Notes under the pieces: generated by a model
The model's database searches: none
Told to the model about the DNA's origin: nothing
Seen by the model: the letters and a program-made list of their open reading frames with translations, nothing else
Made by a program: the position numbers and the translations under genes
In this document: piece by piece, positions 4,789 to 36,738 of the stretch
Position numbering within the stretch: the stretch's first letter is position 1
How the letters are laid out: each line of letters begins with the position of its first letter
Assembly (NCBI GenBank): GCA_965247415.1
Contig: OZ252007.1
Coordinates: 2,416,416-2,480,415 of the forward strand
Direction of reading: 5' to 3'
DNA length: 64,000 nucleotides
From: Methylophilaceae bacterium
GTDB taxonomy: Bacteria > Pseudomonadota > Gammaproteobacteria > Burkholderiales > Methylophilaceae

Positions 4789-6888
<2,100 letters not shown>

Positions 6889-12019: not shown

Positions 12020-12109
12020 GGAAGAGTGGCAGAGCGGTTTAATGCTACAGTCTTGAAAACTGTCGTGGGTGCGAGCCCACCGTGAGTTCGAATCTCACCT
12101 CTTCCGCCA
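12020..12109 (+). tRNA. tRNA-Ser (anticodon UGA), with encoded CCA
   Basis: Hand-folded: acceptor GGAAGAG/CTCTTCC, anticodon stem ACAGT/ACTGT with loop CTTGAAA (anticodon TGA), long class-II variable arm, T-arm GTGAG-TTCGAAT-CTCAC and terminal GCCA. Confidence 0.95.
12081..12109 (+). repeat. attL core: 3' 29 nt of tRNA-Ser, repeated exactly at 44654-44682
   Basis: CGTGAGTTCGAATCTCACCTCTTCCGCCA occurs at both positions. The flanking bases differ on both sides. Confidence 0.9.
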
Positions 12110-12129: not shown

Positions 12130-12390
12130 GTTCTAAGAAGTGCAGGTTTTTTTTGGGCTAAATTTGGGCTATTTAGCCTCGAATTGATGTTATTGATCTC
12201 ATTTGAGTTGTCTGACAATTCTATCCACCGAGCATAAACTTCTAGCAACATTTTCATGTTTACGTGGCCCATCTGTTTTGACACCTACATCGGAGCTCCG
12301 ATCACCTAGCGCCTTTCTTGGAGTGAAATACAACAAGCCTATATCACCGTTTCTGAGCATACCCGCAGTAAAAGTTAATCTTAAGTCAGT
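12130..12390 (-). pseudogene. tyrosine recombinase (integrase) C-terminal remnant
   Basis: Minus-strand translation gives ..DLRLTFTAGMLRNGD.. then an in-frame TAG (12285-12287), then SKQMGHVNMKMLLEVYARWI. These match the box II pattern (HxLRHTF.....G......LGH.....T..Y). No intact N-terminal domain is present upstream. Boundaries are approximate. Confidence 0.6.
12152..12171 (+). repeat. 20-bp motif TTTGGGCTAAATTTGGGCTA (2 x 10-bp TTTGGGCTA unit), copy 1
   Basis: Identical 20-mer at 44554-44573. Both copies lie inside the island, 42 bp from the attL core and 80 bp from the attR core. Confidence 0.8.
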
Positions 12391-12903
12391 GATATTGCAT
12401 ATGCTGTAATAATCGTCTCATTAAATGGCACAGCGGGTTTTTATGATTAGCATATCCTTCGCAGTTCCTGCCGGCTGAAAGATTACCTCGGTAGCTGGCA
12501 GCATAAGTCAAGTTAGTAAAACCACCGCCATCAATCGAACCAGCCAAACGCTCAATGTCAATTGGCAAAACTTTAACGTGAACAATTACGAAACCGTTAA
12601 CTTCGAGCAACCTAACAAAGCGATAAGTTGTTTGCACTCATGTCTGAAGAGGGGTTTGAGATGCACTAAGAAGTCAGATTTATCAGAGGTCATCACTTTA
12701 CATAACAGCCTGAACTCTAGGTTAGTGAATATTCTAGTGGAAAGAGCCACACATAACTATAAAATGAAGCCAATTTCCTATTTGCTAATCAGTGACGATT
12801 GGCTCAAAAATCCCCAAAGCGGAAGTTCAAATATTTCTAGTCTATTACTTATTTTGATCTTAATTATTACTAATAGAAAATCATTTAATAACTATAAATT
12901 TAT

Positions 12904-13383
12904 TTATAACCCCAAATCACTAAGACTAGGATGGTCATCGGGTCGTCTTCCCTGTGGCCAATGAAAAAGTCGCTCAGACTCTTTAATCGTTAAGTTATTA
13001 ATGCTTGCAAAGCGCTTTTTCATCAGGCCGTTTTCATCAAACTCCCAGTTTTCATTGCCGTAAGAGCGAAACCAATTTCCTGCTTCGTCATGCCACTCAT
13101 AAGCAAATCTCACAGCGATACGGTTATCAGTAAATGCCCATAGCTCTTTAATTAGTCGGTACTCATGTTCTCGCGCCCACTTACGAGTTAAAAATGCTTC
13201 AATCTCTGCTCTGCCACGCGGAAACTCTGAGCGGTTTCTCCAAATGCTGTCTGGGGTATAGGCGAGAGCTACGCGCTTGGGATCACGCCCATTCCAACCA
13301 TCTTCTGCCATGCGCACTTTTTGAGAGGCAGTCTCGGCTGTAAATGGTGGAAACGGTGGGCGGCTTTCTGTAGGTGTATTCAT
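12904..13383 (-). CDS. DUF1348 (NTF2/SnoaL-like fold) protein
   Basis: 159 aa. The sequence (PPFT.ETA..KVR.AEDGWN.RDP..V.LAYT.DS.WRNR.EF..GR..I..FL..KW..E..YRL.KELW.F...RIAVRF.YE) is characteristic of the DUF1348 family. Confidence 0.8.
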
Positions 13384-13431
13384 GTAAAAGCTCCTTGATG
13401 AATGAATGTAATAATAGATATTAAACTTCGG

Positions 13432-14028
13432 TTACATCCCAGGCATGCTAACGTATCTGGGTAGTGCTTTGAATCTGGCAAGCCAAGCAATAACAGAAGA
13501 AAAGCGCGATAGATCTACTTTGCCTTCATGCGCGAGGGCAATGTATGGATATAAGGCAATATCTGCAATCGTTGGTGCATCTAATGCTATCCAATCATGG
13601 TTGGTCAGCCGATCCTGCATAATGTTGAGCAACTTTTCTGTGATTTCTTCTGCCTCAACCGGGTTAATTAGTCGACCAAATTTATGATGAAGTCGCAATG
13701 CATTTGGGCCACGTACAATTTCATTGGCGGCGGTAAACAGCCAAGCCATGATTTCTGATAGACGGGCAGAATCGTTAGGCCACCAAACCTCGCCACCGTA
13801 ACGATGGGCTAGGTAGATTAGAATGGCCTGACTATCGCGAATGAGGGTGCCATCATCGTTAAGCACAGGCACTTGCCCGAGCGGGTTCATTGCAAGAAAG
13901 TCTCTGGATTTATGCTCAAGTGAGCTACCATTTACAAGGATGCTTTGGTAGTTTAAGCCTAAAAAACTGAGCATGAGCCGCACTTTGTGACAGTTACCTG
14001 AGAGTGCAAATTCGTAGAGTTTAATCAT
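13432..14028 (-). CDS. glutathione S-transferase family protein
   Basis: The GST N-domain starts at MIKLYEFALSGNCHKVRLMLSFLGL.. and includes QVPVL..DG. The start is set to ATG 14028 because the ORF-track start at 14127 would overlap the upstream gene. Confidence 0.8.
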   Translation of the reverse strand: MIKLYEFALSGNCHKVRLMLSFLGLNYQSILVNGSSLEHKSRDFLAMNPLGQVPVLNDDGTLIRDSQAILIYLAHRYGGEVWWPNDSARLSEIMAWLFTAANEIVRGPNALRLHHKFGRLINPVEAEEITEKLLNIMQDRLTNHDWIALDAPTIADIALYPYIALAHEGKVDLSRFSSVIAWLARFKALPRYVSMPGM

Positions 14029-14050
14029 TGTGTTTCCTATTGTTTGCGTT

Positions 14051-15640
14051 TTATAAGTCGAGCACCAATTTAGGAGTGTTTGCTCGAGACACACAGATAC
14101 ACATCTTCTTGCCGTGTGTGCGTTCACGTTCGGTCAGAGCGGAATCAAGATGCAATGGCGAACCTTCTAACACGTTCACAGCGCAGGTGCCGCAATTGCC
14201 GACCTTGCATTCGGATAAGGTTTTTACCCCCGCAGCTTCTACCGCACTGAGTATGCTTTCATCGGGCGTTACGTATAGGGTTTTGCCAGAGCGACGTAAC
14301 TCAACTTCTATCGCTTGCGCATGAAGAGGCTCTGGCGCAGAAAAGCGCTCAAAACGTATTTGTGTCTCTGCGATGCCGAGCGACAATGCAGCCTGCTGAA
14401 CACCTTTGAGCAAGCGTTCTGATCCGCACACATAAAACAAAGCATCATGCGCGACTTCAGCCATGATTTTTTCAAGGTTAATCGCTTGCTGGGTAGAGAT
14501 ATGCAAGATCAGTCGTTCATCAAACTCATGCTGCAAAGCTTCAACATACGCCATTTCATTCTGCGTGCGGCCGATATAGTGCAAATGAAAAGCGTGACCG
14601 CTTTGTTTAAGTGTTCTCGCCATAGCTAAGATGGGGGTAATGCCAATTCCCCCCGCAATAAGCACAGCGGGTATATCCTCACTTTGTAATGCAAAGTCAT
14701 TGCGTGGTAGTCCACAATGCAGTTGCATGCCTAGCTGATAGTGTTCGTGTATAAAGCGTGAGCCACCCTTGCCTTCAGCCTCATGCAATACCGCAATTTC
14801 GTAGAAATTATTTTGGCTAGGGTTAGAACTAATCGAGTAATTTCGCGTACTGGCTAGTCCATCCGCAAGCATGACTGGCACGCTTAAATGCACCCCTGCA
14901 CTTACTTTGGGCAGCGCTTCCCCAAGTGGGTGACGTAGCTGGTAGGCGCGTATCTTTGGGGTCAGTTGCTGCACGCTTGTAATCACCAGCGACAATTGGC
15001 CTTCCCCTAAAGTTTGCATTGGTGCTTGCCCTGAACTTTGCGCACGTAACTGTTGATTTTCTTCTATCAACGGCTTCAGCACCGCCTCCATTTCGGCCTC
15101 AGTATAGCGTGGGATAATGTGCTGCGGGCAGTTCCACTCCACGGCTTCTACTTGAATCAAAATACCGCGCTCAACACGCGCACGATAGCTCGGCATTTCA
15201 AGACGCGAGATGAGTTCTGGCTCTTCGTCTTGGTGGATGACCCTGGTGGATCCCCATATTTTTAGGCGACGGCGATTGGGATAATCCATCAAAATAATTG
15301 AAATGCGCGGGTTGGCGTTGAGGTTGCCCACGCTCAGATATTGTCGATTGCCTCGAAAATCAGCAAAGCCTATGGTGCGTGCGTCTAGCACTTTTAAAAA
15401 GCCTTGTGGGCCGCCACGGTGTTGTACATAGGGCCAGCCATTTTCGGAAATGGTCGCCATGTAAAGACTATCACGCGCTGCAATAAACTCAGCTTCAAAT
15501 GCGCCGATTTCATTTTTGGGATCATCCGCGAGCTCAAAACCAAGATTACTTTCACGGCTGCCGTAACGTGTTTGGGCCGCTTTGACGCTCTCAGTAAAAC
15601 TAATGGTGGCAAATGCGTTTGGCATATCAGGCCTCTTCAT
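14051..15640 (-). CDS. three-domain oxidoreductase: PNPOx-like FMN-binding domain + FNR-like FAD/NAD(P) domain + plant-type 2Fe-2S ferredoxin
   Basis: 529 aa. The N-terminus has the pyridoxamine-5'-phosphate-oxidase-like split barrel (GWPYVQHRGGPQGFLKVLD...FADFRGNRQY). The middle is a phthalate-dioxygenase-reductase-like flavin/NAD module (RNYSISS, IAGGIGITP). The C-terminus carries CKVGNCGTCAV...C. Confidence 0.8.
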   Translation of the reverse strand: MKRPDMPNAFATISFTESVKAAQTRYGSRESNLGFELADDPKNEIGAFEAEFIAARDSLYMATISENGWPYVQHRGGPQGFLKVLDARTIGFADFRGNRQYLSVGNLNANPRISIILMDYPNRRRLKIWGSTRVIHQDEEPELISRLEMPSYRARVERGILIQVEAVEWNCPQHIIPRYTEAEMEAVLKPLIEENQQLRAQSSGQAPMQTLGEGQLSLVITSVQQLTPKIRAYQLRHPLGEALPKVSAGVHLSVPVMLADGLASTRNYSISSNPSQNNFYEIAVLHEAEGKGGSRFIHEHYQLGMQLHCGLPRNDFALQSEDIPAVLIAGGIGITPILAMARTLKQSGHAFHLHYIGRTQNEMAYVEALQHEFDERLILHISTQQAINLEKIMAEVAHDALFYVCGSERLLKGVQQAALSLGIAETQIRFERFSAPEPLHAQAIEVELRRSGKTLYVTPDESILSAVEAAGVKTLSECKVGNCGTCAVNVLEGSPLHLDSALTERERTHGKKMCICVSRANTPKLVLDL

Positions 15641-15713
15641 CTTTAAATGTTATCTATGTGAGGATTATGGCAAGAACAACTCGCAATAAGAATACTCACG
15701 AAAGACAATTAAT

Positions 15714-15734
15714 TATTTCAATATTTGGAATAAT
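15714..15734 (+). promoter_or_regulatory. 21-nt AT-rich dyad-like motif TATTTCAATATTTGGAATAAT, near-identical to 19806-19826
   Basis: The two copies match at 8 + 9 flanking positions with a 4-nt central variation. This copy lies 74-94 nt upstream of the oxidoreductase start (15640). The other lies in the LysR divergent promoter region. Confidence 0.35.
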
Positions 15735-15748
15735 CTTTCTGAGTAGCG

Positions 15749-16222
15749 CTATTTTGTATTTTGCTGAAAGCGACTCAATAACCATGCATCCATTGAATAC
15801 TTACCAACGCCAGAAACTGCAATCATTGCAAATAGGCTGCCCCAAAGGATGTGTTGCGATAAGGCTACGGGCGGAATATCGACCAAGCTGATGACGGCCA
15901 TGCCATTCACAATACATAAACCGATAGCAGAAAACCGACCCAGCAATCCAGCCGTCAGCAAGATTGGTAAAAGTAATTCGCCACCTGTTCCCATCCATGC
16001 CGCCAGCTCGGGCGGGAGTAAAGGCACGTGGTACTCTTCATTAAATAAAAACAAGGTACTGTCCCAATCCCTCACCTTGGTGAGGCCTGATAAGAAGAAA
16101 ATCTTGGCTAGGTAAAGTCTAGCTATCAATAAGCCTAACGATGTGAGCTTTTCAAGTTGCCCTAGCAACATGTGCTGCCAGTGATAAACGCGGATAAATG
16201 ATGGTGTCTGAATTGTTTTCAT
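15749..16222 (-). CDS. DoxX-family membrane protein of the MNIO/bufferin-type operon
   Basis: Its ATG at 16222 overlaps the upstream stop (ATGA). It is a DoxX-like 4-TM protein (LIARLYLAKIFFLSGLTK) and the last gene of the DUF2282-DUF692-DUF2063-DoxX set. Confidence 0.8.
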   Translation of the reverse strand: MKTIQTPSFIRVYHWQHMLLGQLEKLTSLGLLIARLYLAKIFFLSGLTKVRDWDSTLFLFNEEYHVPLLPPELAAWMGTGGELLLPILLTAGLLGRFSAIGLCIVNGMAVISLVDIPPVALSQHILWGSLFAMIAVSGVGKYSMDAWLLSRFQQNTK

Positions 16223-16989
16223 AATGAATCTCCTAATTGATTTGAGGTAAAGCCTATGGCTAGGCATTGTTGTAATGCACTCTGCAACCAAGGTAATGTT
16301 TTTTCGCCCATGTTGGATGCCTCATTAATTGCATGCGCTAAGCTTTTGCCTTGTAATAGGCTTGAAAAAAACAAATACGCTTCGTGAGTAATGATGGAAA
16401 GTGACGCACGCCAATGCTCACGACTAATAAGCAGATACTGCTGCGCACCCTCCGATAAAGGTTGATTGGCCTGATCTAACCATGTTTCGCGATTTTCCTT
16501 AGCGTGATGGGCCTGCCAAATTTCCAAGAGTGGAAAGCGAGAGGCCATGACGGCCACATAATGTGTCGGGTTTAAATGCAAAAATTGCCCGTCTATGGCG
16601 TTAAGTAAGGCGATAGAAGCAACTGTATGTTCTGGTGTTGCAGCGCGTTTCAAGCGATGACAAAACCAATCAAGTTGTGCTACATCTGCCAGAAAAGGCA
16701 TGTCATGCAGAGTCTCTTGTTGTGATAGCCATTTCGCCAGATGCTCACCCCATTCACCCCAATCGCCAGTGTGCAATGGATGCGCATCATAATAAAGTGC
16801 AGCCACAGCTTGCAGCCCTTCTGCACCAAGCAGTTGATCAAGTGTAGGAAAGCTAATGTCGAGCGTACGTGAAGCGCTTGCAAGCAGGTTGCTGCGATAA
16901 ACCAGAATGCCTTTTGGCGGTATTGCGGCAGTTTTGTGTGCAATAGAACGCGCAAATTGTTCTGGTGAACCGTCAATCACGCTGATCAT
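16219..16989 (-). CDS. DUF2063-domain RiPP maturation partner (BufC/HvfC-like)
   Basis: 256 aa from ATG 16989, which forms an ATGA overlap with the MNIO gene stop. It has the DUF2063 hallmark ..LVYRSNLLASASRTLDISFPTLDQLLG. Confidence 0.8.
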   Translation of the reverse strand: MISVIDGSPEQFARSIAHKTAAIPPKGILVYRSNLLASASRTLDISFPTLDQLLGAEGLQAVAALYYDAHPLHTGDWGEWGEHLAKWLSQQETLHDMPFLADVAQLDWFCHRLKRAATPEHTVASIALLNAIDGQFLHLNPTHYVAVMASRFPLLEIWQAHHAKENRETWLDQANQPLSEGAQQYLLISREHWRASLSIITHEAYLFFSSLLQGKSLAHAINEASNMGEKTLPWLQSALQQCLAIGFTSNQLGDSL

Positions 16990-17846
16990 GATGTAAGCAC
17001 CCCTTGCAAGATGCTCCGTGCGATTTGTGCTTCGGCGACCAAGGCTTCCCAGCTTGGCAAATCGTTGTCCCATTCAATCAGCGTGGGTATTGCGCCAAAG
17101 CGTTTTAAAGCCAAACGATAAGCCTGCCAAACGGTTTCAGATACAGGGTGACTGTGATCATCAATCATCAGCTCGCCTTCGGCTGGTGGCGTGCATCCAG
17201 CAAGATGTATTTCACCAACAACGGTTATGGGGATAGACGCTATCCACTGGCTTACATATTCAATTGGGTTTGGGATAGCGCTATTTGTCGCATTCACGAC
17301 CAAATTATTTAAATCCAACAACAGACCACAACCAGTGCGTTGCGTTAGCTCGGTGAGGAATTCTGTTTCAGACATACTACTGCTGCTAAACGCCACATAA
17401 GCAGAAATGTTCTCCACTAACATCTGTCTCTTTAAGCTGTTTTGTAGCGTATCAACGTTTTCACATAACGCGCCTAAACACGCCTCATTAAACGCTAACG
17501 GTAATAAATCGCCAGCATGCTGTAGTTCATCATGGTGCAGAGTCCATCCATGCGCAGCGTGGTCAGATACCAAAATAGGATTCGTGCGTTCCACTAAACG
17601 TTTAAGCTTTTGCACATGCTGTGGCGCTACACCCGCTTTTGAGCCAAGACCTAATGCCGTGGCGTGCAGACTGATGGGAAAACGAGCGGCCGCTTCATCA
17701 AGCACAGCGATGCTCGCACCCCCGTCTGCAAAAAAATTTTCTGCATGCACTTCCACAAAATCCACCAAAACATCAGAGTTAAGCGCAGCTTCATAATGCG
17801 GGCTTCTAAGACCAACGCCTATCATGTGTTGCGTAACGGTTTTCAT
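16986..17846 (-). CDS. DUF692 / MNIO (multinuclear non-heme iron oxidative) enzyme (BufB/HvfB/MbnB-like)
   Basis: 286 aa with a TIM-barrel DUF692 signature at the N-terminus (IGVGLRSPHYEAAL...VDFVEVHAENF), and later SLHATALGLGS, HLAG and LIEWD. Confidence 0.88.
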   Translation of the reverse strand: MKTVTQHMIGVGLRSPHYEAALNSDVLVDFVEVHAENFFADGGASIAVLDEAAARFPISLHATALGLGSKAGVAPQHVQKLKRLVERTNPILVSDHAAHGWTLHHDELQHAGDLLPLAFNEACLGALCENVDTLQNSLKRQMLVENISAYVAFSSSSMSETEFLTELTQRTGCGLLLDLNNLVVNATNSAIPNPIEYVSQWIASIPITVVGEIHLAGCTPPAEGELMIDDHSHPVSETVWQAYRLALKRFGAIPTLIEWDNDLPSWEALVAEAQIARSILQGVLTS

Positions 17847-17871
17847 GGGCTGATACTGACTTCGTTAACGT

Positions 17872-18156
17872 TTAAGATTTTGTAGACTTAAACTTGGCCT
17901 TGGCTTCAGCATCCACCAGACCATTCAGTGATTTGCATGTGCCTTTTGCAACCAGCTTCCACTCGCCAATATCATTGTTTGTTTTGGACTGACCAGCACA
18001 CGAATGCGTACCTGCTAAATTGGCACAGTCGTTTTGCCCAGCCTTGACGATGCCGTAGCATTTTTCTTTGTTTGGGTCTGCGGCAAAACTGGTTGAAGAA
18101 ATGCCATTGGCAACTAAGCCAGCTAAGGCTGTTGCGAGGAATAATTGATGATTCAT
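17872..18156 (-). CDS. DUF2282 family secreted Cys-containing precursor (bufferin BufA1-type)
   Basis: Sec signal peptide (MNHQLFLATALAGLVANGISSTSFA) followed by the DUF2282 core EKCYGIVKAGQNDCANLAGTHSCAGQSKTNNDIGEWKLVAKGTCKSLNG, which has 4 Cys. An SD-like AAAGGA precedes ATG 18156. Confidence 0.85.
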   Translation of the reverse strand: MNHQLFLATALAGLVANGISSTSFAADPNKEKCYGIVKAGQNDCANLAGTHSCAGQSKTNNDIGEWKLVAKGTCKSLNGLVDAEAKAKFKSTKS

Positions 18157-18181
18157 GATAGTTCCTTTCATTGATTAAAAT

Positions 18182-18514
18182 TTAAATGCCAAAGCCTTCA
18201 TGATGAATGAGCCAACGATTAATCTCTGACTCCGCATGATGACCAACCATTGTGTCTACTAGCTCGCCGTCACGCAGTAGTACCAAAGTCGGCACGCTAC
18301 GCACATTGAAAAACGCGGCAATTTCTTCCTGTTGGTCTATATTCGTTCTGGCAGCAAGCAAATTTGATTTGTAGCGGGATGCGACGCGCTCGAATACGAT
18401 GCCTAAACGTTGGCAAGAGGCGCAACAAGATGACCAAAAATCAATTAACACCCAGCGATGTTGCGTAGCTAGCTCGGCCAAGTGTTCAGTTTTATTAATA
18501 TGAATAATGCTCAT
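18182..18514 (-). CDS. thioredoxin-fold protein with atypical CASC active site
   Basis: 110 aa with the motif LIDFWSSCCASCQRL in the thioredoxin position and no signal peptide. It ends 10 nt upstream of the DUF2282 ORF. Confidence 0.7.
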   Translation of the reverse strand: MSIIHINKTEHLAELATQHRWVLIDFWSSCCASCQRLGIVFERVASRYKSNLLAARTNIDQQEEIAAFFNVRSVPTLVLLRDGELVDTMVGHHAESEINRWLIHHEGFGI

Positions 18515-18570
18515 TTCAGGCTCCTTAAGCTCTGAGCCATCTCAAATGACAAGATGGCTCAGATGATGTC

Positions 18571-19074
18571 TTACAAGTCTTTAGGGGCTTTGTTACGAAG
18601 TTGTGGCCACTCTGACTCAGCTTTTGTCAAATTACCTGGCACGTCTTCTAACCATTTAGTCTGTACTTCTTTGTTAAGGTTGAGGTAGAGCTTGTTGTCC
18701 ACCACACGCCATGCTTGTGGGTCGCCATCAAGCTTTTTACCTAATGCCACGCCCATTGCACAAAAGCCGCCGTACTGAGGTACAAATTTTTCTGAATTTG
18801 CCTTAAATGCATCTCGGTTTTTTGCATTGGCAAAATGGTAGGTTGCGCCTTTGTAAGATGCGGTGAATTTATCGGAACCTTCTACTGGCGCGGCATTTGT
18901 AAAGTAAGCCACAGGGTCGTAGCCTTTAATCGCTACGCCTTGTTTATCCACATTGAGTGCGCTAGTAGAGGTTTCGTCATAGGCAAAGGCCAATTCAGGC
19001 ACAATGGTGACAAGGGTGCTGGTACTTAAAATCGCCGCTAATAGGAGGTGACGGCTAAAAAATTGGGTTTTCAT
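18571..19074 (-). CDS. secreted YHS-domain protein
   Basis: Signal peptide followed by VAIKGYDPVAYFT...KF.ASYKGATYHFANAKNRDAF..NPEKF.PQYGGFC, typical of YHS-domain proteins. Confidence 0.75.
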   Translation of the reverse strand: MKTQFFSRHLLLAAILSTSTLVTIVPELAFAYDETSTSALNVDKQGVAIKGYDPVAYFTNAAPVEGSDKFTASYKGATYHFANAKNRDAFKANSEKFVPQYGGFCAMGVALGKKLDGDPQAWRVVDNKLYLNLNKEVQTKWLEDVPGNLTKAESEWPQLRNKAPKDL

Positions 19075-19124
19075 AATGTGATCCTTTAAAAATAATGAGT
19101 GTTAATGAATAAAATACGCGTGTC

Positions 19125-19670
19125 TTAAGCCGCCACTTTTAATGCCACTTTTGGAAAATCAATATCTAATTGACTGGCTTTACCAATCATGTTGGTCAGT
19201 ACGTTCATGCCTACATGGGTAATAATCTCCACAATCTCAGCATCGCTGTAGCCAGCTGCACGTGCCTCAAGTAACTCCGCAGTCGTCACATCGCCAGTAT
19301 GTTCTGCAATTGAATTAGCCAGTTTGACGGCCACTGCAGCTTTTGCGTCTTGGCTAGTGCCGGCGCGATTTGCAGAGATTTCATCGCCAGTTAAACCAGC
19401 TTTGCGACCAATAGCGGTATGCGCGGATAAACAGTACTCGCAAGAGTTTTGTTGTGCCAAAGCTAGGGCGATACGTTCGCGGGTTTGTGGGTCTAGGCTG
19501 CCTTCATTCGCTATACCATGCAAACCTAAGAATGCACGTAATGCAGCAGGCGAGTTGGCGAATACTTTTAAAAAGTTAGGCACCATCCCTAGTTGTGATT
19601 GAATAGCATCTAGCAATGCTTTTTGCTCTGAATTTGCAGTTTCATTTGTAACAGTAGTAATACGGCTCAT
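19125..19670 (-). CDS. carboxymuconolactone decarboxylase / AhpD-like family protein
   Basis: 181 aa with the AhpD-type CxxC motif in context (QQNSCEYCLSAH). Confidence 0.8.
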   Translation of the reverse strand: MSRITTVTNETANSEQKALLDAIQSQLGMVPNFLKVFANSPAALRAFLGLHGIANEGSLDPQTRERIALALAQQNSCEYCLSAHTAIGRKAGLTGDEISANRAGTSQDAKAAVAVKLANSIAEHTGDVTTAELLEARAAGYSDAEIVEIITHVGMNVLTNMIGKASQLDIDFPKVALKVAA

Positions 19671-19805
19671 GATTTCATTCCTTTTAAAAATAAGATTAAA
19701 TTAAATAGTCGCTTTATGTTGTGTAGCTGTTTGGTACCGTTTAGCGAGTGAGTGCATTGTTCCATCTTTCATTTAGTTAAAGAATATGCAAAAATAACAA
19801 TAAAC

Positions 19806-19826
19806 TATTTCAAATATTGGAATAAT
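19806..19826 (+). promoter_or_regulatory. 21-nt motif TATTTCAAATATTGGAATAAT (partner of 15714-15734)
   Basis: Lies in the 160-bp divergent region between the AhpD-like gene (start 19670, minus) and the LysR gene (start 19831, plus). Confidence 0.35.
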
Positions 19827-19830
19827 TAAG

Positions 19831-20736
19831 ATGGCGGTAGATCGACTTTTATTGATGACGGTGTTTGTGGCAGTGGCCGAAGAGGAAGGATTTGCTGGAG
19901 CAGCGCGGCGTTTGAATATATCGCCGCCCGCAGTGACTAGAGCAATTGCCACATTAGAGCAACACTTGGGGATTAAACTCTTAAATCGTACAACACGTTA
20001 TGTGCGTGTGACGGAAGCTGGTCAGCGTTATCTGGAAGATGCCAAGCGGGTAATCGCGGCAGCAGATGAAGCCGACGAGTCTGTGGTGGGGCTCAATGCG
20101 GAGCCACGCGGACATATCGTCGTCACAGCGTCTGTGCTTTTCGGGCGTTTATACGTGATGTCAGGCATTGTGGACTATATGAAACGCTATACGCAGATGG
20201 AAGTGTCGGCCTTGTTTGTGGACCGCGTCGTCAATATGTTAGAAGAAGGAGTGGATGTCGCTATCCGTATTGGTGAACTGCCAGACTCAAGCTATCGCGC
20301 CATTCGCGTGGGTTCAGTCAGAAGGGTCATGTGCGCTTCGCCAAATTATTTAGAGCAATATGGCATGCCAAAATCGCCTGAGGAGCTTGCGCAACATCAA
20401 ATTATTCTCGCGAGAGGGCTTAACCCGTCACCTGAGATTCGATTTGTAAAGAATGACGCTCCTCTAACAGTAAAAGTAAAACCCAGACTGATGGTGAGCG
20501 ATAATGATTCGGCGATAGAGGCTGCTGTAGAAGGCATGGGTATTACACGTTTGCTTTCTTATCAAATTGCACCACAACTCGCGGATGGCAGCTTGAAAAT
20601 TATTCTCAGTGAATTCGAGACGAAAGCTGTACCCGTGCATATCCTACATAATGAGGGTAGATATAGTTCGGCAAAAATTAGAACGTTTGTGGATTTGATG
20701 GCTGAGCGATTGCGTGCCGATACATCTTTAAATTAG
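19831..20736 (+). CDS. LysR-family transcriptional regulator
   Basis: N-terminal wHTH (FVAVAEEEGFAGAARRLNISPPAVTRAIATLEQHLGIKLLNRTTR) and a typical ~300-aa length. It is divergent from the minus-strand array. Confidence 0.92.
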   Translation: MAVDRLLLMTVFVAVAEEEGFAGAARRLNISPPAVTRAIATLEQHLGIKLLNRTTRYVRVTEAGQRYLEDAKRVIAAADEADESVVGLNAEPRGHIVVTASVLFGRLYVMSGIVDYMKRYTQMEVSALFVDRVVNMLEEGVDVAIRIGELPDSSYRAIRVGSVRRVMCASPNYLEQYGMPKSPEELAQHQIILARGLNPSPEIRFVKNDAPLTVKVKPRLMVSDNDSAIEAAVEGMGITRLLSYQIAPQLADGSLKIILSEFETKAVPVHILHNEGRYSSAKIRTFVDLMAERLRADTSLN

Positions 20737-20759
20737 TGAAATCCCTTTGGAGAGCTGCT

Positions 20760-21674
20760 ATGTCAAAAATCGCCATCGTTCAACACCCCCCCACTTTTTT
20801 AGATCGCGCTAGCGCATTACAAAGAACGGTTTCCGCGATTAACGAAGCAGCAATCAACGGTGCAAAACTTATTGTATTTCCCGAAGCTTTTATTTCAGGT
20901 TATCCCGCTTGGGTGTGGCGTTTAAGGCCAGGCACAGATCGTGAAGCTCTGACCAAACTTCATGCCATGGCGTTAAGCCAAGCTATCAGTTTGCAAAACG
21001 ATGATTTGCTCCCAGTGCGTGAAGCCGCCAAAGCCCATCAAGTCACCGTTGTGTGTGGAATGAATGAGCGAGATAACGAACGCAGCCAAACAACGCTATA
21101 CAACACGGTGGTAACAATTGGGCCAGATGGAGAAGTGTTAAATAGACACAGAAAGCTCATGCCCACAAATGCTGAGCGAACATTTTGGGGGCTTGGAGAT
21201 GCCAGTGGACTAAAGGTGGTAGAAACACCATGCGGAAGAATTGGTAGCCTGATTTGTTGGGAAAACTACATGCCACTCTCAAGAACCGCTTTGTATGAAC
21301 AAGGGATTGAGATTTACATTGCCCCCACTTACGACAGTGGAGAAAACTGGATATGTAGCTTAAGGCATATTGCCCGCGAAGCTGGATGTTGGGTACTTGG
21401 TGCTGGAAATATTTTTCAGGCAAGCGACATTCCAGATACGCTAACAGCAAAACACATCATGTACCCAAACCCAAAAGAATGGGTCAACCCTGGCGATTCT
21501 GTAGTGATTGCGCCTGATGGAACTATTGTGGCTGGCCCCTTGCATCAAGAACAAGGAATTTTGTATGCCGACATTGAGCTACAATCTGTAGTGACTGCTA
21601 GAAGAAGTCATGACGTTGTTGGACATTCGGCACGCAACGATATTTTCCAGCTAAAAATCACATCAACAGAATAA
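20760..21674 (+). CDS. nitrilase / carbon-nitrogen hydrolase family protein
   Basis: Catalytic-triad contexts are present (FPEAF, ..HRKL.P.., GSLICWENYMP). ATG 20760 is preceded by a GGAGA SD-like sequence. Confidence 0.85.
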   Translation: MSKIAIVQHPPTFLDRASALQRTVSAINEAAINGAKLIVFPEAFISGYPAWVWRLRPGTDREALTKLHAMALSQAISLQNDDLLPVREAAKAHQVTVVCGMNERDNERSQTTLYNTVVTIGPDGEVLNRHRKLMPTNAERTFWGLGDASGLKVVETPCGRIGSLICWENYMPLSRTALYEQGIEIYIAPTYDSGENWICSLRHIAREAGCWVLGAGNIFQASDIPDTLTAKHIMYPNPKEWVNPGDSVVIAPDGTIVAGPLHQEQGILYADIELQSVVTARRSHDVVGHSARNDIFQLKITSTE

Positions 21675-21730
21675 TAGTTTATAAAATTAAATGACCGCTT
21701 TGTCCCTAAGATTTTACATTATAAAAACTC

Positions 21731-21784
21731 TTTGCGAATGACTGCTTATCCCCCCCCTGAAAAGCCTATCCGTATTAAATCCCC
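21731..21784 (+). repeat. ~54-bp repeat, copy A (TTTGCGAATGACTGCTTATCCCCCCCCTGAAAAGCC...ATCCCC)
   Basis: Aligns with 32233-32284 in the same orientation. It shares TTTGCGAATG-CTGCTT-TCCCCCC-CTGAAAAGCC----CGTA-TA-ATCCCC. Confidence 0.6.
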
Positions 21785-21858
21785 TACAGCCAGTCAACAA
21801 CTATTCAGCGATTGCCGAAGTTGGTCCATCTGGATTGAATACTTTTGCCGCAATCGAT

Positions 21859-22425
21859 TTACTCAGCTCGCATTGCAATTTTCGGCTTGTGCCAAGCACG
21901 AGACTTCACTACCTTGTCCAGTGGAGTGCCGGCTATTGAATTTGTAAAGTTGCTCATTACCTTGATTGCCAATCCAAGAACAACCTCCAGTGCCTGCTGT
22001 TGCGAGAAGCCTGCGATGAAAAAGGACTCAAGAGCTGCAGGCGATACCTTTCCACGCTCATGAATTAGTGCCTTTGCGAATACATGTAGGGCATGCAGCC
22101 GCGGATCTGGGAGTTGCGCGCCAGCGCGCAAAGCATTTAAATTTGAAGCATCCATACCGGCTTTCTCGGCTAAAAGGCTGTGCCATGGAACGCAGTAGTC
22201 ACATTCGTTCTCGAAGTTAGCCGTGAGGTATACAACTTGTCGCTCGACCGGTGATAGGCTCGTTGTATCAAAGAGATCCCAAGAACTGCTGTAGGCAGCT
22301 AGAAGCGCTGGTGCCGACGCCATAACACGTTCAAGGTTTGGAATCATTCCGAAGTTGCGTCTTGTGGCGGCTAAAGCCTCTTGAGCCACCTCGGGTGCTG
22401 TTGTTTCGTCGTGAAGGGGGAACAT
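21859..22425 (-). CDS. carboxymuconolactone decarboxylase / AhpD-like family protein (second copy)
   Basis: 188 aa with the CxxC motif in context (FENECDYCVPWH). Confidence 0.75.
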   Translation of the reverse strand: MFPLHDETTAPEVAQEALAATRRNFGMIPNLERVMASAPALLAAYSSSWDLFDTTSLSPVERQVVYLTANFENECDYCVPWHSLLAEKAGMDASNLNALRAGAQLPDPRLHALHVFAKALIHERGKVSPAALESFFIAGFSQQQALEVVLGLAIKVMSNFTNSIAGTPLDKVVKSRAWHKPKIAMRAE

Positions 22426-23125
22426 CTTGACTCCTTGGTACTTAGAGGTGGCTAGGCTTGTGATCTAATAACATTATAGAAGCTCATGTTTCTTTAAATT
22501 TACAATTGTGATTGTAACTTGCATGGCTAGTGTTCTTTGTATTTCTCGGTTTTGTTATTTATCGATCTCCTTAATGAAATATTAATATATAGACTCAGGG
22601 AAATATACTTTTGATTAAAAATGTCATGTTTTTCACCAATTTTGCAGAAGAAACTTGAATGCTAGATCTCCTTAGGCGGCCTTTAAAAGTAAAGTCTGTA
22701 TTTCTAAAGTCAGCCAATAAAAGAAAGGCAATATTTAATATTGTGAAGTATTTTGGCAATGATAATTATTCATTTCAAGTTAATTGCCGATTATCTATTA
22801 GTATATAAAAAGATGATCTCTTCAAGTAAGCAAAGCTGCTTAAGCTCACTGAGTGTTAAACTAAAATGCATGAGAATTTTTGAGAAACTGAAGTAAATTG
22901 TGGCACAACACAAAGCTTTGTATTATTTTTAATGGTACCTATCTCAACGTCTACAATAAAAATGCATGCCAAAGTATTCTTCTGGTTGAACATTGGTAAC
23001 GTATTAATGTCTTTATTTTAAATCCCGGTTTTTTTAACAATAACTGGTCAATTTGATGCGGTAATAATTATTCTATTTTTACAGTTTCTCATCCTTAAAT
23101 TAACGTCACAAGTAATTGTTAAAGA

Positions 23126-23906: not shown

Positions 23907-24683
23907 CTATGCTACCTTACTAATTAACCCAGCCTCCAGCCAGCCAGCAATATATTGTGCCGCAGTTGTCATGGCTTGCTCATCATCCATCTCGACTTCT
24001 AGGCTGGCACAGATTTCTCCGAAGGTTGCCCCCATCATTGCCATATTTAAGGTGATGAATTCCATTTCTACAATTTGCCTAAATTGTGAGTTGAAGTTTT
24101 TACGCCAGATGAGCCATGATTGATAAGTGGCTTCTTGCGCAGGTTTTGGTGGTGTTTCTTCAATTTCTAGCGCTTGCCATATTGGTATTGTGTTCCAGTG
24201 CGTGCGTACTATTTTGATGGTAGGTTGAAATTTAAATCTCAGCATAGCCCAGTTTTCTAGTGGAATTTCAGCGAGGTCTTGCAGGCTTAATTCGGGGACA
24301 TCTTCTTCATCAAATGCTAAAGACAATGCCCATTCAAAATCTGCCATCTCGGCGGCGATTGGGTATTGCGATAGTGTAGCAAGTAAATGCTCATGCATTT
24401 GGCTGCCATACCAACGTAAATTGCGGTAGGTTGAAGGATGTGCCGTTATATACTCTCGGGCAGTTTTATTGAATAGCACGTCACCAAGTAAGGCTTTTAG
24501 CTGTGGGTAGGCAGTTGCAAGCGCTTCGACAATGCGTAATCGATAGGCATTATGGTAAATACTAAGGCGTTGTTTTGCGCCTACTTTTTTGTCGTCGATT
24601 ATGGCTTTAACAAAACCTGTACCTTGCGCATCGTCTAACAAATATGCTTGAAAATCAGCTTGAAGTTTAGCTAGATTGTTCAT
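23907..24683 (-). CDS. DUF2063-domain RiPP maturation partner (second locus)
   Basis: The N-terminus LAKLQADFQAYLLDD and RLSIYHNAYRLRIVEALATAYPQLKALLG are DUF2063 hallmarks. Its start forms a 4-nt ATGA overlap with the MNIO gene stop. Confidence 0.8.
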   Translation of the reverse strand: MNNLAKLQADFQAYLLDDAQGTGFVKAIIDDKKVGAKQRLSIYHNAYRLRIVEALATAYPQLKALLGDVLFNKTAREYITAHPSTYRNLRWYGSQMHEHLLATLSQYPIAAEMADFEWALSLAFDEEDVPELSLQDLAEIPLENWAMLRFKFQPTIKIVRTHWNTIPIWQALEIEETPPKPAQEATYQSWLIWRKNFNSQFRQIVEMEFITLNMAMMGATFGEICASLEVEMDDEQAMTTAAQYIAGWLEAGLISKVA

Positions 24684-25516
24684 GCTGCCACCTTTAGCAC
24701 GCTAGATGATAGGTCACGCGCAATTTGCAACTCTTGCACTAAAACATCTAATTCTGGAATATTATCATCACGCTCTATCATGGTGGAAACCTCGCCCAGT
24801 TTTGAGATTGCGTAACTATATAAATCCCACACATGATCTATCACTGGTGCATCGTGCGTATCAATAATGTAGTCGCCATTATTTTGGTGCCCAGCTAAAT
24901 GAATTTGCTGAACGCGATTTTTTGGAACGCCGTTAATAAACGTTTTAGCATCAAATTGGTGGTTGTAACTGCTTACGTAAATATTGTTTACATCTAGCAG
25001 CAAAAGGCAATCTGCTTGCTCGCTAATAAGCGAGATGAACTCCCATTCGCTCATACTCGAATCTACATAGCTTGCGTAGCTAGAGACGTTTTCCAGCAAA
25101 ATTTGGCGACCTAGGTAATCTTGCACAATCTTTACACGCTCGGCTACATGCTTGGCTGTTTCTTCTGTATATGGTAGTGGTAATAAATCATGTAAGTTTT
25201 GGCCGTGCACGCCTGTCCAGCAAAGGTGGTCAGAAATCCATTGAGGTTGAATTCTATCAGCCAGTTTTTTTAAATCTTTTAAATAAGTTGGATCAATTGG
25301 CGCTGTTGAACCAATTGAGAGCGAAACGCCGTGCATCACAACGGGATAATCGGCACGAATTCTGTCTAAAAAATTGAGAGGCAAGCCACCAGGAATCATA
25401 TAGTTTTCTGATAGCGCTTCGAACCAATCAATATTGGGCTTGGAATCTAAAATTTCGTTGTAATGCTCTGATCGTAAACCAAGTCCAAATCCTAATGTTG
25501 GTGGATTGTTACGCAT
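24680..25516 (-). CDS. DUF692 / MNIO enzyme (second locus)
   Basis: 278 aa with LGFGLGLRSEHYNEIL...IDWFEALSENY, VMHGVSLSIGS, IHLAGH and MIERDD. It is paralogous to 16986-17846. Confidence 0.88.
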   Translation of the reverse strand: MRNNPPTLGFGLGLRSEHYNEILDSKPNIDWFEALSENYMIPGGLPLNFLDRIRADYPVVMHGVSLSIGSTAPIDPTYLKDLKKLADRIQPQWISDHLCWTGVHGQNLHDLLPLPYTEETAKHVAERVKIVQDYLGRQILLENVSSYASYVDSSMSEWEFISLISEQADCLLLLDVNNIYVSSYNHQFDAKTFINGVPKNRVQQIHLAGHQNNGDYIIDTHDAPVIDHVWDLYSYAISKLGEVSTMIERDDNIPELDVLVQELQIARDLSSSVLKVAA

Positions 25517-25611
25517 GTTTATCTCAAATAGTAGGGTATTTTACAAACTCAAAATTTGAGCATGGGTTAGTAGCAATTCCCATGCTCAGCTTTAGCACTA
25601 AACCGTCTAAA

Positions 25612-25962
25612 CTAAATCAAGTGACCGCCTTTTGCATCACAATCAGCACCAGTTAATGCTAAGTGCCCATGACCTTTACATTCGTTTTGACCTTTGCAGG
25701 CATTTGCAGCACTTTTGCAAGAACCTTGACCTTTACAAGCATTTGTAGCTGTTTTACAAGAGTTGTGACCTTTACAAGCATTGCCAGCAGTTTTGCAATC
25801 ACTAGTACCCTTACATGAGTTTACTCCTACACATGCACCTACGGTGCTGTTGGCTGCTGTATTGGTGCCTGCACCAGTTGCTGCACAGCCAGCTAAGATA
25901 AGTGCTGCCGCACCAATTGCTAGCAATGCGCCCCGGCGGCCATTATTTGTATTTATAGACAT
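25612..25962 (-). CDS. Cys/Lys-repeat lipoprotein-type precursor peptide (multi-Cys bufferin/HvfA-like class)
   Basis: 116 aa. The leader has an RR motif (NNGRRGALLAIG) and a lipobox (LILAGC). The body contains four tandem 13-14-residue units (VNSCKGTSDCKTAG / NACKGHNSCKTAT / NACKGQGSCKSAA / NACKGQNECKGHGH), giving 10 Cys after the lipobox Cys. It lies directly upstream of MNIO and DUF2063. Confidence 0.75.
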   Translation of the reverse strand: MSINTNNGRRGALLAIGAAALILAGCAATGAGTNTAANSTVGACVGVNSCKGTSDCKTAGNACKGHNSCKTATNACKGQGSCKSAANACKGQNECKGHGHLALTGADCDAKGGHLI

Positions 25963-26226
25963 GATATTTCCTTTCGAGTTTATTAAAAAAATCCACCATT
26001 TCTAATTAAAACTAACATTTAGAAAAGACAGACGATCTAAATACGTGAATTAACACAAAATAGATTCATCATGTGCCACGCATTACTTTGTCGAAATAAT
26101 CTGCAGACCCTTACAATTCGTTTACTTTTATATTGCTTTCTATTCACCGTAATTTAAATTTACAAAATATGTAAGTAAACATTTTCATTTGCGACTAATG
26201 TTGACATTTAATAATCGGAGTTCATT

Positions 26227-26610
26227 ATGAAAGCTTTATTTAAATCAATATTATTAACATCTAATCTTATAGTCGTTGCGACTGCGTTTGCAGAAACTAC
26301 CGCTTTTACTCAATCAGGTTTTAATCAATTACAACAAGAAGGTAAATCTATACTGGTTGAAATTCATGCGCCATGGTGTCCTACTTGTCGCGCGCAAGCA
26401 CCAGTTATTGATATGTTACTCAAGAAAAAAGAGTATCAATCCATTAACGCTTTACGTGTGGATTTTGATAGCCAAAAAGAGGCTTTAAAGGCATTTAATG
26501 TAAGTAGGCAAAGTACATTAATCGTTTATAAAGGGTCGAAAGAGATGGGTCGCAGTACTGGGGATACTTCACCAGCAAATATCGAGAAGTTAATTCAGAA
26601 AGCAATCTAA
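26227..26610 (+). CDS. secreted thioredoxin-family protein (WCPTC)
   Basis: Signal peptide MKALFKSILLTSNLIVVATAFA and active site HAPWCPTCRAQ. Confidence 0.85.
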   Translation: MKALFKSILLTSNLIVVATAFAETTAFTQSGFNQLQQEGKSILVEIHAPWCPTCRAQAPVIDMLLKKKEYQSINALRVDFDSQKEALKAFNVSRQSTLIVYKGSKEMGRSTGDTSPANIEKLIQKAI

Positions 26611-26626
26611 CAAAAATTAAGGATTT

Positions 26627-27361
26627 GTGATCATGATTGCTCATTTTGGTATTTATGGACTTAGTTTCTTAGCTGGAATACTGTCTATACTATCTCCATG
26701 TGTTTTACCTCTTGTCCCCATTATCGTGGGGGCTGCACTTAATACGCATAAATATGGTCCATATACGCTAGCATTTGGATTGGCAATTTCATTCACTGCA
26801 GTTGGGGTCTTTATTGCCACAATTGGCGCATCAATTGGAATAGATCAAGAAGCGTTTAGAACGATTGCAGCCTTACTTTTAATCATCTTCGGTGTGGTAT
26901 TGCTTTCAGGGACTTTGCAGGAAAGATTTGCTAGTGTTACTGCTGGCATTAGTGGATCTGGAAATAACTTATTAAGTAAAGTATCTGCAAACTCATTATT
27001 TGGTCAATTTATTTTGGGATTGTTATTAGGTATTGTATGGAGTCCATGCGTAGGGCCCGTTTTAGGAGCAACCATCACTCTAGCAAGCCAAGGAACTAAC
27101 TTGCTTCACGTGACAATAGTTATGGCAATATTTGGACTTGGTGCAGGCTTACCATTAATCATATTGGGATCGCTTTCAAAACAAATCATGATGAACCTTA
27201 GAGTCAAGTTATTTGCCGCAGGTAAAATTGGCAAACGTATCCTTGGTGTTATTTTATTGCTTGTTGGATTACTAATAATATCTGGATTCGATAAACAATT
27301 TGAAGCTTTAATTGTAAAAGCATCACCAGATTGGTTAATTTCAATTACTACACGATATTGA
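26627..27361 (+). CDS. CcdA/DsbD-family transmembrane thiol-disulfide electron transporter
   Basis: Polytopic protein with the two conserved Cys-Pro motifs (LSPCVLPLVP and WSPCVGPVLG). The start is GTG 26627 or ATG 26633. Confidence 0.85.
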   Translation: MIMIAHFGIYGLSFLAGILSILSPCVLPLVPIIVGAALNTHKYGPYTLAFGLAISFTAVGVFIATIGASIGIDQEAFRTIAALLLIIFGVVLLSGTLQERFASVTAGISGSGNNLLSKVSANSLFGQFILGLLLGIVWSPCVGPVLGATITLASQGTNLLHVTIVMAIFGLGAGLPLIILGSLSKQIMMNLRVKLFAAGKIGKRILGVILLLVGLLIISGFDKQFEALIVKASPDWLISITTRY

Positions 27362-27566
27362 ATGATTTACTTTGATTTAGATGTGGGCATTCGTACCTTA
27401 GTTATCTTAGAAATCCATATTAGTATTTTTTGACATGCCATTATTGGGTAGCCTAACAAGTCAGTTTGAGTTGCATTGAATCATTAAGCAATATAAATAG
27501 TTGATTTGTCTAGTAAGTTTTGAGTATCTACAACGACTAATGCTTATTTAAATAGGATGCGAAGTT

Positions 27567-28933: not shown

Positions 28934-28956
28934 GTACGGCCAAAGCCTGTCGATTT

Positions 28957-36730: not shown

Positions 36731-36738
36731 TTAAGCAA

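Follow-up and report, generated by a model that had tools for sequence, protein, structure and literature searches.

Gene organization of the locus

The block of genes described here lies in a 64,000-nt stretch of contig OZ252007.1 of a Methylophilaceae bacterium (the window, to which all coordinates refer). It holds a bufferin-type cluster, comprising genes for an exported cysteine-containing precursor, a multinuclear non-heme iron oxidase (MNIO), a DUF2063 partner and a DoxX membrane protein, preceded by genes for an AhpD-like, a YHS-domain and a thioredoxin (Trx)-fold protein. Bufferins are among the largest families of peptides that are synthesized ribosomally and modified after translation (RiPPs). 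The list of open reading frames (ORFs) of the window contains ten closely packed minus-strand genes, running from 19670 down to 12904. In this order, they encode an AhpD-like/CMD-family CxxC protein (19125-19670), a YHS-domain (seleno)protein homologue (18571-19074), the Trx-fold protein (18182-18514), a BufA1-type precursor with a DUF2282 domain (17872-18156), a putative BufB-type MNIO (16986-17846), the DUF2063 partner (putative BufC/PME1; 16219-16989), the BufD/HvfX-like DoxX (15749-16222), a PNPOx-FAD/NAD(P)-2Fe-2S fusion reductase (14051-15640), a glutathione S-transferase (GST; 13432-14028) and a DUF1348 (SnoaL-like) protein (12904-13383). The gaps between successive genes are 50, 56, 25, 25, -4, -4, 108, 22, and 48 nt. 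A LysR-type transcriptional regulator is encoded divergently on the plus strand (19831-20736; PF00126 and PF03466).

A sequence-only reading of this DNA had described a unit bounded by 15749 and 19670, with the four bufferin genes and the AhpD, YHS and Trx genes directly upstream. All seven genes were found on the minus strand where that reading had placed them. The proposed boundaries did not hold, as the divergent lysR gene and the reductase, GST and DUF1348 genes share the conserved block. The unit is thus larger than first described and also includes the LysR regulator, a duplicated operator-like palindrome and the three downstream enzyme genes, the DUF1348 gene being the last of the block.

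The bufferin core

The profiles PF10048, PF05114, PF09836, PF07681 and PF04945 all match the products expected from them, the last one marginally (30.1 bits at a cut-off of 30.3), and the four core genes follow the order DUF2282-MNIO-DUF2063-DoxX, in agreement with their earlier classification as a bufferin/Hvf-type MNIO RiPP cluster. The precursor, of 94 aa, scores 84.5 bits with PF10048 (cut-off 22.4), covering profile positions 1-50 of 53. It was correctly read before as a DUF2282 core with four Cys residues, which lie in the contexts EKCYG, NDCAN, HSCAG and GTCKS and are likewise present in its homologues. Inspection of the hydrophobic N-terminus suggests a signal peptide ending in SSTSFA|AD. 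The first ATG of the precursor ORF, at 18171, is located 10 nt after the trx stop codon, the distance given in the sequence-only reading. The second ATG, at 18156, has a better ribosome-binding site (RBS; AAAGGAA) and fits the N-termini of the homologues, so that the true gap is probably 25 nt.

The MNIO domain is full-length (PF05114, 288 bits, E 7.5e-86). Among the MNIO models, NCBIfam MNIO_BufB scores best (303.8 bits at a cut-off of 310), while the HvfB model stays about 131 bits lower. As its 173 bits are far from the HvfB cut-off of 360, the enzyme is not an HvfB. In a sequence search of solved structures the closest one was 3BWW (E 5e-29), which belongs to the HvfB branch. An alignment with 3BWW, TglH (8HCI) and MbnB shows that the conserved His/Asp/Glu motifs are present (lH, sDH, vEN, lDlNN, iHlAG, DxH, and E); we take the iron-ligating residues to be those assigned in the MbnB structures. 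The DUF2063 partner matches PF09836 with its N-terminal domain (51 bits), a C-terminal RRE domain being expected in partners of the PME1 kind, and DoxX matches PF07681 (56 bits). With the HvfX family model NF050144, DoxX reaches 50.6 bits at a cut-off of 80. ATGA overlaps could be read directly at the MNIO/DUF2063 (16989-16986) and DUF2063/DoxX (16222-16219) junctions, and the translational coupling that had been proposed from them stands. Judged by these matches, the four-gene core is an ordinary cluster of the already known Buf1 (bufferin 1/GIG/Hvf-like) type.

The YHS and thioredoxin-fold proteins

The YHS protein scores 160.1 bits with NF041384, "YHS domain-containing (seleno)protein" (cut-off 70), which, next to the marginal Pfam match, settles its family. 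By inspection it carries a signal peptide (ELAFA|YDE). Its Cys105, in GGFCAMG, is invariant in 40 homologues, and the surrounding motif GG[FY]C matches the GxU motif of the family, in which this conserved Cys position is occupied by selenocysteine in some members (PMC13188914). This substitution argues for a redox-active residue rather than for plain metal binding. The earlier description of a secreted, metal-associated YHS protein can therefore be kept as far as secretion and the YHS domain are concerned, while "metal-associated" is too simple. All of 100 YHS loci scanned have Cys at the selenocysteine site, but the scan pattern itself required Cys and this count carries no information on the use of selenocysteine. 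A conserved Cys-Ala-Met Cu(I) site was considered and dismissed, as the Met position varies among relatives (M, F, W, or Y). A sequence search of solved structures with the YHS protein returned only chance matches to BAF (E about 0.1), and a Foldseek search of the PDB with its moderately confident AlphaFold2 model (pLDDT 76.8) gave nothing at E 1e-3 or better; toluene and phenol monooxygenase hydroxylases were listed for short YHS-like segments, which offered no functional clue. In the literature and structure libraries searched, neither a function nor a solved structure was found for NF041384 proteins, nor was any link of the family to DUF2282, DoxX, Trx or AhpD genes found in that literature.

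The Trx-fold protein matches PF00085 (70.7 bits) and is cytoplasmic by inspection. With TIGR01068, the model of canonical thioredoxins (TrxA/TrxC), it reaches 79 bits (cut-off 96.8). Its active site, within FWSSCCASCQ, reads SCCASC instead of WCGPC, which in an alignment to solved thioredoxins corresponds to W31C, G33A and P34S in E. coli numbering, the buried Asp26 and the cis-Pro being kept. From these features it is classed as a Trx-fold protein and not as a canonical thioredoxin. All seven of its close homologues have CCASC and the same gene order. The Trx relatives at YHS loci outside this lineage, identified in metagenomes, all have WCxPC, and the identity of the window protein with its counterparts in syntenic loci amounts to only 26-36%. 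An exhaustive search of 1.84 billion representatives yielded no relative of between 46% and 78% identity and no CCxxC relative beyond the lineage of the window, the nearest single-domain match being 40% identical with the site SSGCGAC. The atypical site noted before is thus borne out, and inspection agrees with the cytoplasmic location. Since WCxPC is what syntenic thioredoxins have in other lineages, CCASC represents a derivative peculiar to this lineage, not a trait of the system. The Pro of WCGPC is lost and the active-site loop has acquired an additional Cys, as in engineered or atypical thioredoxins that bind Fe-S clusters, such as E. coli Trx1 CACC/CACA, W28C/I75C and IsTRP; in engineered thioredoxins it is changes of this kind that make the binding possible (PMC6210436). 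The motif in the window, CC-A-S-C, differs from these, and Fe-S or metal binding by the CCASC site may serve as a lead rather than a result.

Recurrence of the neighbours in other genomes

The MNIO was used to scan GTDB with one genome per species (185,579 species genomes), and the best 80 loci were searched with the proteins of the window and their ORFs were read; related loci are numbered with the prefix L. The best MNIO identity was 54%, in Thalassolituus, from which it follows that the organism of the window is not closely represented in this set. A yhs gene is located directly upstream of bufA in six of the seven closest MNIO relatives (L001, L002, L003, L005, L006, and L007), which belong to Thalassolituus, two Psychromonas, two Neptuniibacter and an Alteromonas, and a trx gene lies between the two in four of these six. 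Among the other 73 loci a YHS match was found only in L051, about 3 kb downstream of the MNIO gene and not upstream of bufA. The Thalassolituus locus has the same parts in another arrangement, with a LysR|AhpD-DUF1348-reductase unit just downstream of doxX. In the two Psychromonas loci, bufA is present in two tandem, near-identical copies, flanked by trx and the MNIO gene (5098-5370 and 5691-5963 in L002; 5093-5368 and 5689-5961 in L003).

Metagenomes were scanned with an alignment of YHS proteins. The best 80 loci were retained, 56 of which were assessable in that they extended at least 700 nt downstream of yhs. A gene for BufA, MNIO or DoxX immediately follows yhs in 22 of the 56, yhs adjoins bufA in 19, and a trx gene is present in about 19. 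The commonest arrangement is YHS-Trx-BufA-MNIO-DUF2063-DoxX. Variants have trx after doxX (L095 and L097), the order LysR|YHS-DoxX-BufA-MNIO (L084 and L085), or YHS-Trx-(BufA)-DoxX with no MNIO gene between (L103, L111, L113, and L129). In L098, a contig of 5065 nt, the genes for MNIO, BufA and Trx that tblastn detected on the plus strand downstream of yhs are mirrored by minus-strand copies on its upstream side, a palindromic arrangement that probably reflects an assembly artefact. The BufA of the window is 53-72% identical to the BufA proteins of YHS-linked loci versus 38-56% in other Buf1 loci.

The closest named homologues of the YHS protein, with 60-71% identity, come from Betaproteobacteria. 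Niveibacterium (L166) has LysR|CMD-YHS-Grx-CMD-reductase-GST-DUF1348, in which Grx is glutaredoxin, and no buf genes at all. Chitinilyticum (L168) has LysR|CMD-YHS-Grx-BufA-DoxX-peroxiredoxin, with reductase and GST genes some 2.5 kb further downstream, and Chitinibacter (L173) has an integrase gene followed by LysR|CMD-YHS-Grx-DUF302-BufA-DoxX-peroxiredoxin. Shorter versions are LysR|CMD-YHS-DoxX in Massilia (L169) and AraC|CMD-Trx-YHS-BufA in Dechloromonas (L171). Metagenomic contigs of the same lineage as the window, with Trx proteins 77-92% identical, show exactly its order of 11 genes (L081, L163, L164, and L170); in some contigs of this lineage a gene for a Zn-dependent alcohol dehydrogenase has been inserted after doxX.

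Co-occurrence of the trx, yhs and ahpD genes with the bufferin operon elsewhere, the lack of which had been named as a reason to abandon the idea of an extended unit, was thus observed. What is conserved is a backbone of AhpD/CMD and YHS with a thiol oxidoreductase, to which BufA and DoxX are often added. Trx and Grx fill the same slot in it without being homologous replacements of each other. MNIO and DUF2063 appear in some lineages only, and in the window the backbone and a full Buf1 cluster are combined. It follows that AhpD and YHS are not add-ons to a bufferin operon, as had been thought: they head a LysR-divergent module which exists without MNIO and DUF2063 and which in Niveibacterium lacks buf genes altogether. 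The Buf1 cluster is therefore better described as nested in a redox module.

DUF2282 and/or DoxX genes accompanied by yhs and trx or grx, in a locus without MNIO and DUF2063 genes, were seen in L103, L111, L113, L129, L168, L171 and L173. Those among them with bufA provide a genomic context for the "orphan" bufferin precursors noted in a survey of the bufferin landscape (PMC12452194).

Control regions, downstream enzymes and the hairpin after the YHS gene

The AhpD-like neighbour predicted by the sequence-only reading is clearly of that family (PF02627, 63 bits; TIGR01926, 84.8 bits at a cut-off of 81.8; ahpD_dom, 61.5 bits at a cut-off of 27.8). Its CxxC motif is CEYC, and it lacks a signal peptide by inspection. 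Within the block it is the protein with the highest conservation, sharing 85% identity with its Niveibacterium counterpart and 94-98% with those from the lineage of the window. The DUF1348 protein (PF07080, 227 bits) shares 86% identity with its counterpart in Niveibacterium and 71% with the one in Thalassolituus. The reductase, with PF01243, PF00970, PF00175 and PF00111 domains, has counterparts encoded near LysR/CMD/YHS genes in L166, L168, L081, L163, L170 and L001. The gene for the GST, which has GST_N and GST_C domains, follows the reductase gene also in L081, L163, L166 and L170. A lysR gene divergent from CMD-YHS genes is present in L081, L163, L164, L166, L168, L169, L170 and L173.

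The region between lysR and ahpD (19739-19826) contains two conserved elements. In the block ATTCTT...AATGCACTCAYTCGCT (19739-19785), columns are invariant in an alignment of the window lineage and four Betaproteobacteria, and close to the start of lysR a 23-mer near-palindrome is located (19804-19826). A second copy of this near-palindrome (15712-15734) is found within the 108 nt that separate doxX from the reductase gene, as part of a 47-nt direct repeat (15688-15734 and 19780-19826; 77% identity) that is the largest repeat family in the region. The operator-like duplication is also present in L081 (8726-8748 and 12819-12841). These sequences suggest that LysR controls two promoters, located in front of ahpD and of the reductase gene, respectively. 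The nitrilase gene that comes after lysR is intact in the window (20736-21674). Its counterpart next to lysR in L081 (6876-7792) was called in two pieces, of 72 and 241 aa, which suggests a frameshift or a pseudogene. Beyond the nitrilase gene, a second CMD/AhpD-family gene (21859-22425; 188 aa, CDYC motif, 51% GC) ends the GC-rich block; relatives of it, with 39-41% identity, are found near yhs in L044, L106 and L111.

The hairpin with 11-bp arms that had been reported between yhs and trx is present, about 3 nt away from the 18529-18559 given for it. The stem-loop occupies 18531-18563 on the minus strand, with perfect 11-nt arms at 18532-18542 and 18552-18562, a stem extending to 14 bp and a loop of 9 nt. 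The fold energy is -25 kcal/mol over 81 nt (z = -2.6). There is no U-tract, and the RBS of the downstream trx gene stays free. In L081, L170 and L163 the arms are kept while the loop has diverged fully; changes in the paired positions within the lineage amount to one compensatory G-C to A-U replacement, one G-U pair and one A-C mismatch. Non-homologous but strong stem-loops occur just after yhs in L166, L168, L169, L171, L173, L002 and L003, thus spanning Niveibacterium, Chitinilyticum, Chitinibacter, Massilia, Dechloromonas and Psychromonas. Such unrelated hairpins at a conserved position are more telling than covariation. The hairpin is best read as an intercistronic RNA element, a partial terminator or stabiliser, that sets the levels of AhpD and YHS relative to those of the downstream products; the alternative is a protein-binding palindrome. 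A repeated element, e.g., a repetitive extragenic palindromic sequence (REP), was discarded because the hairpin occurs only once in the window.

Island location and mosaic origin

The block is located on a genomic island integrated at a tRNA gene. The 3' end of the tRNA-Ser(TGA) gene (12020-12109, plus strand) is repeated exactly and directly, over 29 bp, at 12081-12109 (the left attachment-site repeat) and 44654-44682, where zero such repeats are expected by chance, and the two copies bound a segment of 32.6 kb. A remnant of the C-terminal part of an integrase, of about 45 codons, lies beside the tRNA gene on the minus strand (about 12150-12284). The 9.5 kb from 12900 to 22430 have a GC content of 46.2% compared with 38-39% in the rest of the window.

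These observations fit an explanation in which the neighbours are passengers, stress genes that pile up and are shuffled on the same mobile islands without any functional interplay. Not only is the block compositionally foreign, it is also a mosaic: the backbone proteins are 64-86% identical to those of a betaproteobacterium, Niveibacterium (AhpD 85%, DUF1348 86%, YHS 71%, LysR 69%, GST 68%, and reductase 64%), and the best identities of the buf proteins, 54-61%, are with proteins of marine Gammaproteobacteria. Related loci are found in other neighbourhoods, L081 and L173 being flanked by integrase genes, and gene order shifts, as illustrated by trx after doxX and doxX before bufA in the variants mentioned above. 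On the other hand, YHS, Trx/Grx, BufA and DoxX remain together across two classes of proteobacteria and at least three different gene orders, and the conservation of gene content despite rearrangement is a usual sign of functional linkage. Moreover, the gaps in the window are very short, a consensus scan detected no intrinsic terminator-like site in any of them, and the slot of the thiol oxidoreductase is filled by either of two non-homologous proteins. Gene order in these loci shows a non-random association of YHS and Trx/Grx with BufA and DoxX, and mere hitch-hiking is in our opinion improbable; if it were nevertheless the cause of the link, the locus would be merely another Buf1 cluster. 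The explanation that we favour, with moderate confidence, is that a stress-defence block with a divergent LysR regulator was acquired horizontally, in which a Buf1 cluster has become embedded in an older thiol/redox module.

Relation to known systems and proposed function

The Buf1 system of Caulobacter vibrioides (bufABCD) has the same components in the same order: a DUF2282 precursor with a Sec-type signal and four Cys residues, an MNIO, a DUF2063 protein and DoxX. In that system, MNIO and the DUF2063 protein turn the two central Cys residues into 5-thiooxazoles and the product, exported by the Sec pathway, binds copper (PMC11626156). By analogy, 5-thiooxazoles at the central Cys residues, copper binding in the periplasm and a disulfide bond between the outer Cys pair would be expected here. 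The two loci differ in their surroundings: in the window, ahpD, yhs and trx come before the cluster, and the reductase, GST and DUF1348 genes come after it. Furthermore, Buf1 clusters typically come with genes for an extracytoplasmic function (ECF) sigma factor and NrsF (PMC12452194), instead of which the window has a divergent lysR with a conserved operator-like sequence. MNIO, DUF2063, DoxX and an exported Cys-containing substrate are also shared with the hvf operon of Haemophilus influenzae (oxazolin), the doxX operon of Neisseria, and the GIG operons of Cupriavidus and Legionella. The substrate HvfA is an EGKCG-repeat protein, unlike the DUF2282 precursor of the window, and no YHS or Trx partner has been reported for these operons in the literature examined.

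The mechanism envisaged for the favoured explanation starts from the published Buf1 work. BufA would be made in the cytoplasm and bound by the DUF2063 partner, MNIO would use O2 to convert its two central Cys residues to 5-thiooxazoles, and the product would be exported via Sec to bind copper in the periplasm. LysR may drive the promoters before ahpD and before the reductase gene, and the hairpin would cause transcript levels to differ between the genes on either side of it. The cytoplasmic Trx could keep the precursor Cys residues reduced or feed reducing equivalents to the iron site of MNIO; whether MNIO requires an external reductant is an open question (PMC13097082). Through its single invariant Cys, the secreted YHS protein may assist the bufferin and DoxX in the envelope, either in redox reactions or in Cu(I) handling. 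AhpD, the flavin/Fe-S reductase, GST and DUF1348 would counter the effects of the same stress, be it oxidative, chlorine or copper stress, in the cytoplasm. A relay of the DsbD type, from Trx through a DoxX Cys, was rejected: the lone Cys of DoxX (GLCIVNG) is a Ser in L001. A membrane-bound DoxX with soluble thiol/redox partners in oxidative-stress defence is known from the DoxX-SseA-SodA complex of Mycobacterium tuberculosis, which has been cited as a model for bufferin-linked DoxX proteins (PMC7907618, PMC12452194). Its DoxX is only distantly related to that of the window, for which YHS, Trx/Grx and BufA are the candidate partners instead of SseA and SodA.

Several findings weigh against this proposal. 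The score of the MNIO is 6 bits short of the NCBIfam BufB cut-off. YHS is absent from 73 of the 80 closest Buf1 clusters and about 60% of the YHS relatives that could be assessed have neither buf genes nor trx or doxX next to them, so that the partnership is confined to certain clades. CMD genes are seldom found beside yhs in the marine metagenome set, which makes the link of AhpD with bufferins weaker than that of YHS or Trx. In Caulobacter, DoxX is dispensable for Buf1 modification and for protection from copper (PMC11626156), and the accessory genes may be equally dispensable. Covariation in the hairpin is not significant, being equalled in 127 of 500 shuffles of four sequences. A simple scan, which is uninformative about promoters, found no consensus sigma-70 promoter in either control region. 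Finally, all functional roles beyond gene identity are ones that we infer.

The "extended copper/redox defence unit" of the sequence-only reading is accordingly correct in that the neighbours recur, whereas its copper role is an extrapolation from Caulobacter Buf1 and related operons are also induced by hypochlorous acid (HOCl). The module could thus be directed mainly against reactive chlorine or oxygen species or electrophiles, with copper being secondary. LysR would then sense an oxidant, AhpD, GST, the reductase and Trx would repair the cytoplasm, and YHS, BufA and DoxX would guard the thiols of the envelope, BufA buffering the redox state by means of thiol/thiooxazole groups, either sacrificially or catalytically, and being able to do so even without MNIO. 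Indeed, BufA is encoded with or without DoxX next to CMD, YHS and Grx/Trx in the absence of MNIO and DUF2063 genes in L168, L171 and L173, possibly also in L103 and L111, but the genomes concerned may encode an MNIO elsewhere. Peroxiredoxin genes follow doxX in L168 and L173, and the selenocysteine/Cys site of the YHS family suggests redox catalysis. The hvf/doxX operon of H. influenzae is induced by HOCl via RpoE2 (PMC7907618), the GIG operons being induced by gold and copper. The AhpD-like protein RcsA has been tied to HOCl degradation (PMC9751292), although the AhpD of the window is linked to RcsA at the family level only. As copper binding and tolerance are the sole experimentally shown function of Buf1 (PMC11626156), we regard a primary role against chlorine or oxidants as possible but less probable than the horizontally acquired block with an embedded Buf1 cluster.

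A more specific and rather speculative proposal can also be made, namely that the NF041384 YHS protein is a dedicated periplasmic partner of DUF2282 proteins which, together with Trx/Grx and DoxX, would form an envelope redox/copper system for which the thiooxazoles made by MNIO are optional. As a corollary, Trx might be the reductant of MNIO or the keeper of the precursor thiols, and its CCxxC site, evolved in the lineage of the window, could be a binding site for a metal or an Fe-S cluster.

Judged from gene context, both the extended conserved surroundings and the occurrence of YHS, Trx/Grx, BufA and DoxX as a set independent of MNIO appear to be new relative to the literature searched. No paper was found in that literature that mentions YHS in connection with MNIO, bufferins, DUF692 or DUF2282. 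In the bufferin landscape study, an unrelated neighbour was counted only within 10 bp and domains were tabulated when present at 5% of the loci or more; LysR is listed at 11% while YHS and thioredoxin are not listed (PMC12452194). Under these two rules, partners restricted to certain clades, such as YHS and Trx, would stay hidden. The set, with or without MNIO, offers concrete candidates for the role of DoxX, for the MNIO reductant and for the reason why many DUF2282 genes lack an adjacent MNIO gene, and it connects an uncharacterised family of (seleno)proteins to a tractable phenotype. The findings are useful to specialists and can be tested directly.

Other features of the island

In addition to the block described above, the island contains a second MNIO locus, an insertion sequence (IS) element and secretion or pilus genes. 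The second MNIO locus (23907-28358) has genes for a 116-aa precursor, an MNIO and a DUF2063 protein on the minus strand. The precursor (25962-25612) has a lipoprotein-like LAGC signal and 11 Cys residues in repeated xxC-K-G/T motifs and is without a Pfam match; the MNIO scores 373 bits and the DUF2063 gene is ATGA-coupled. Divergent from these are genes for a secreted thioredoxin with a WCPTC site (26227-26610), a membrane electron carrier of the DsbD/CcdA type (26627-27361), and a DUF1223 protein (27567-28358). Thioredoxin-fold genes thus adjoin both MNIO loci of the island.

An IS3-like transposase pair (28532-29766) was recognized from the translations in the part of the island that separates the second MNIO locus from the secretion genes; its two consecutive ORFs are a 133-aa helix-turn-helix orfA and a 269-aa integrase-core orfB. 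Two runs of type II secretion/type IV pilus-like genes, also read from the translations, flank the right tRNA repeat (35513-44169 and 45176-54395). They include genes for a secretin (40776-42698), pseudopilins (42701-44169), a GspF-like protein (45176-46432) and a GspE-like ATPase (46429-48144). One of the two runs is possibly borne by the island and the other by the chromosome.

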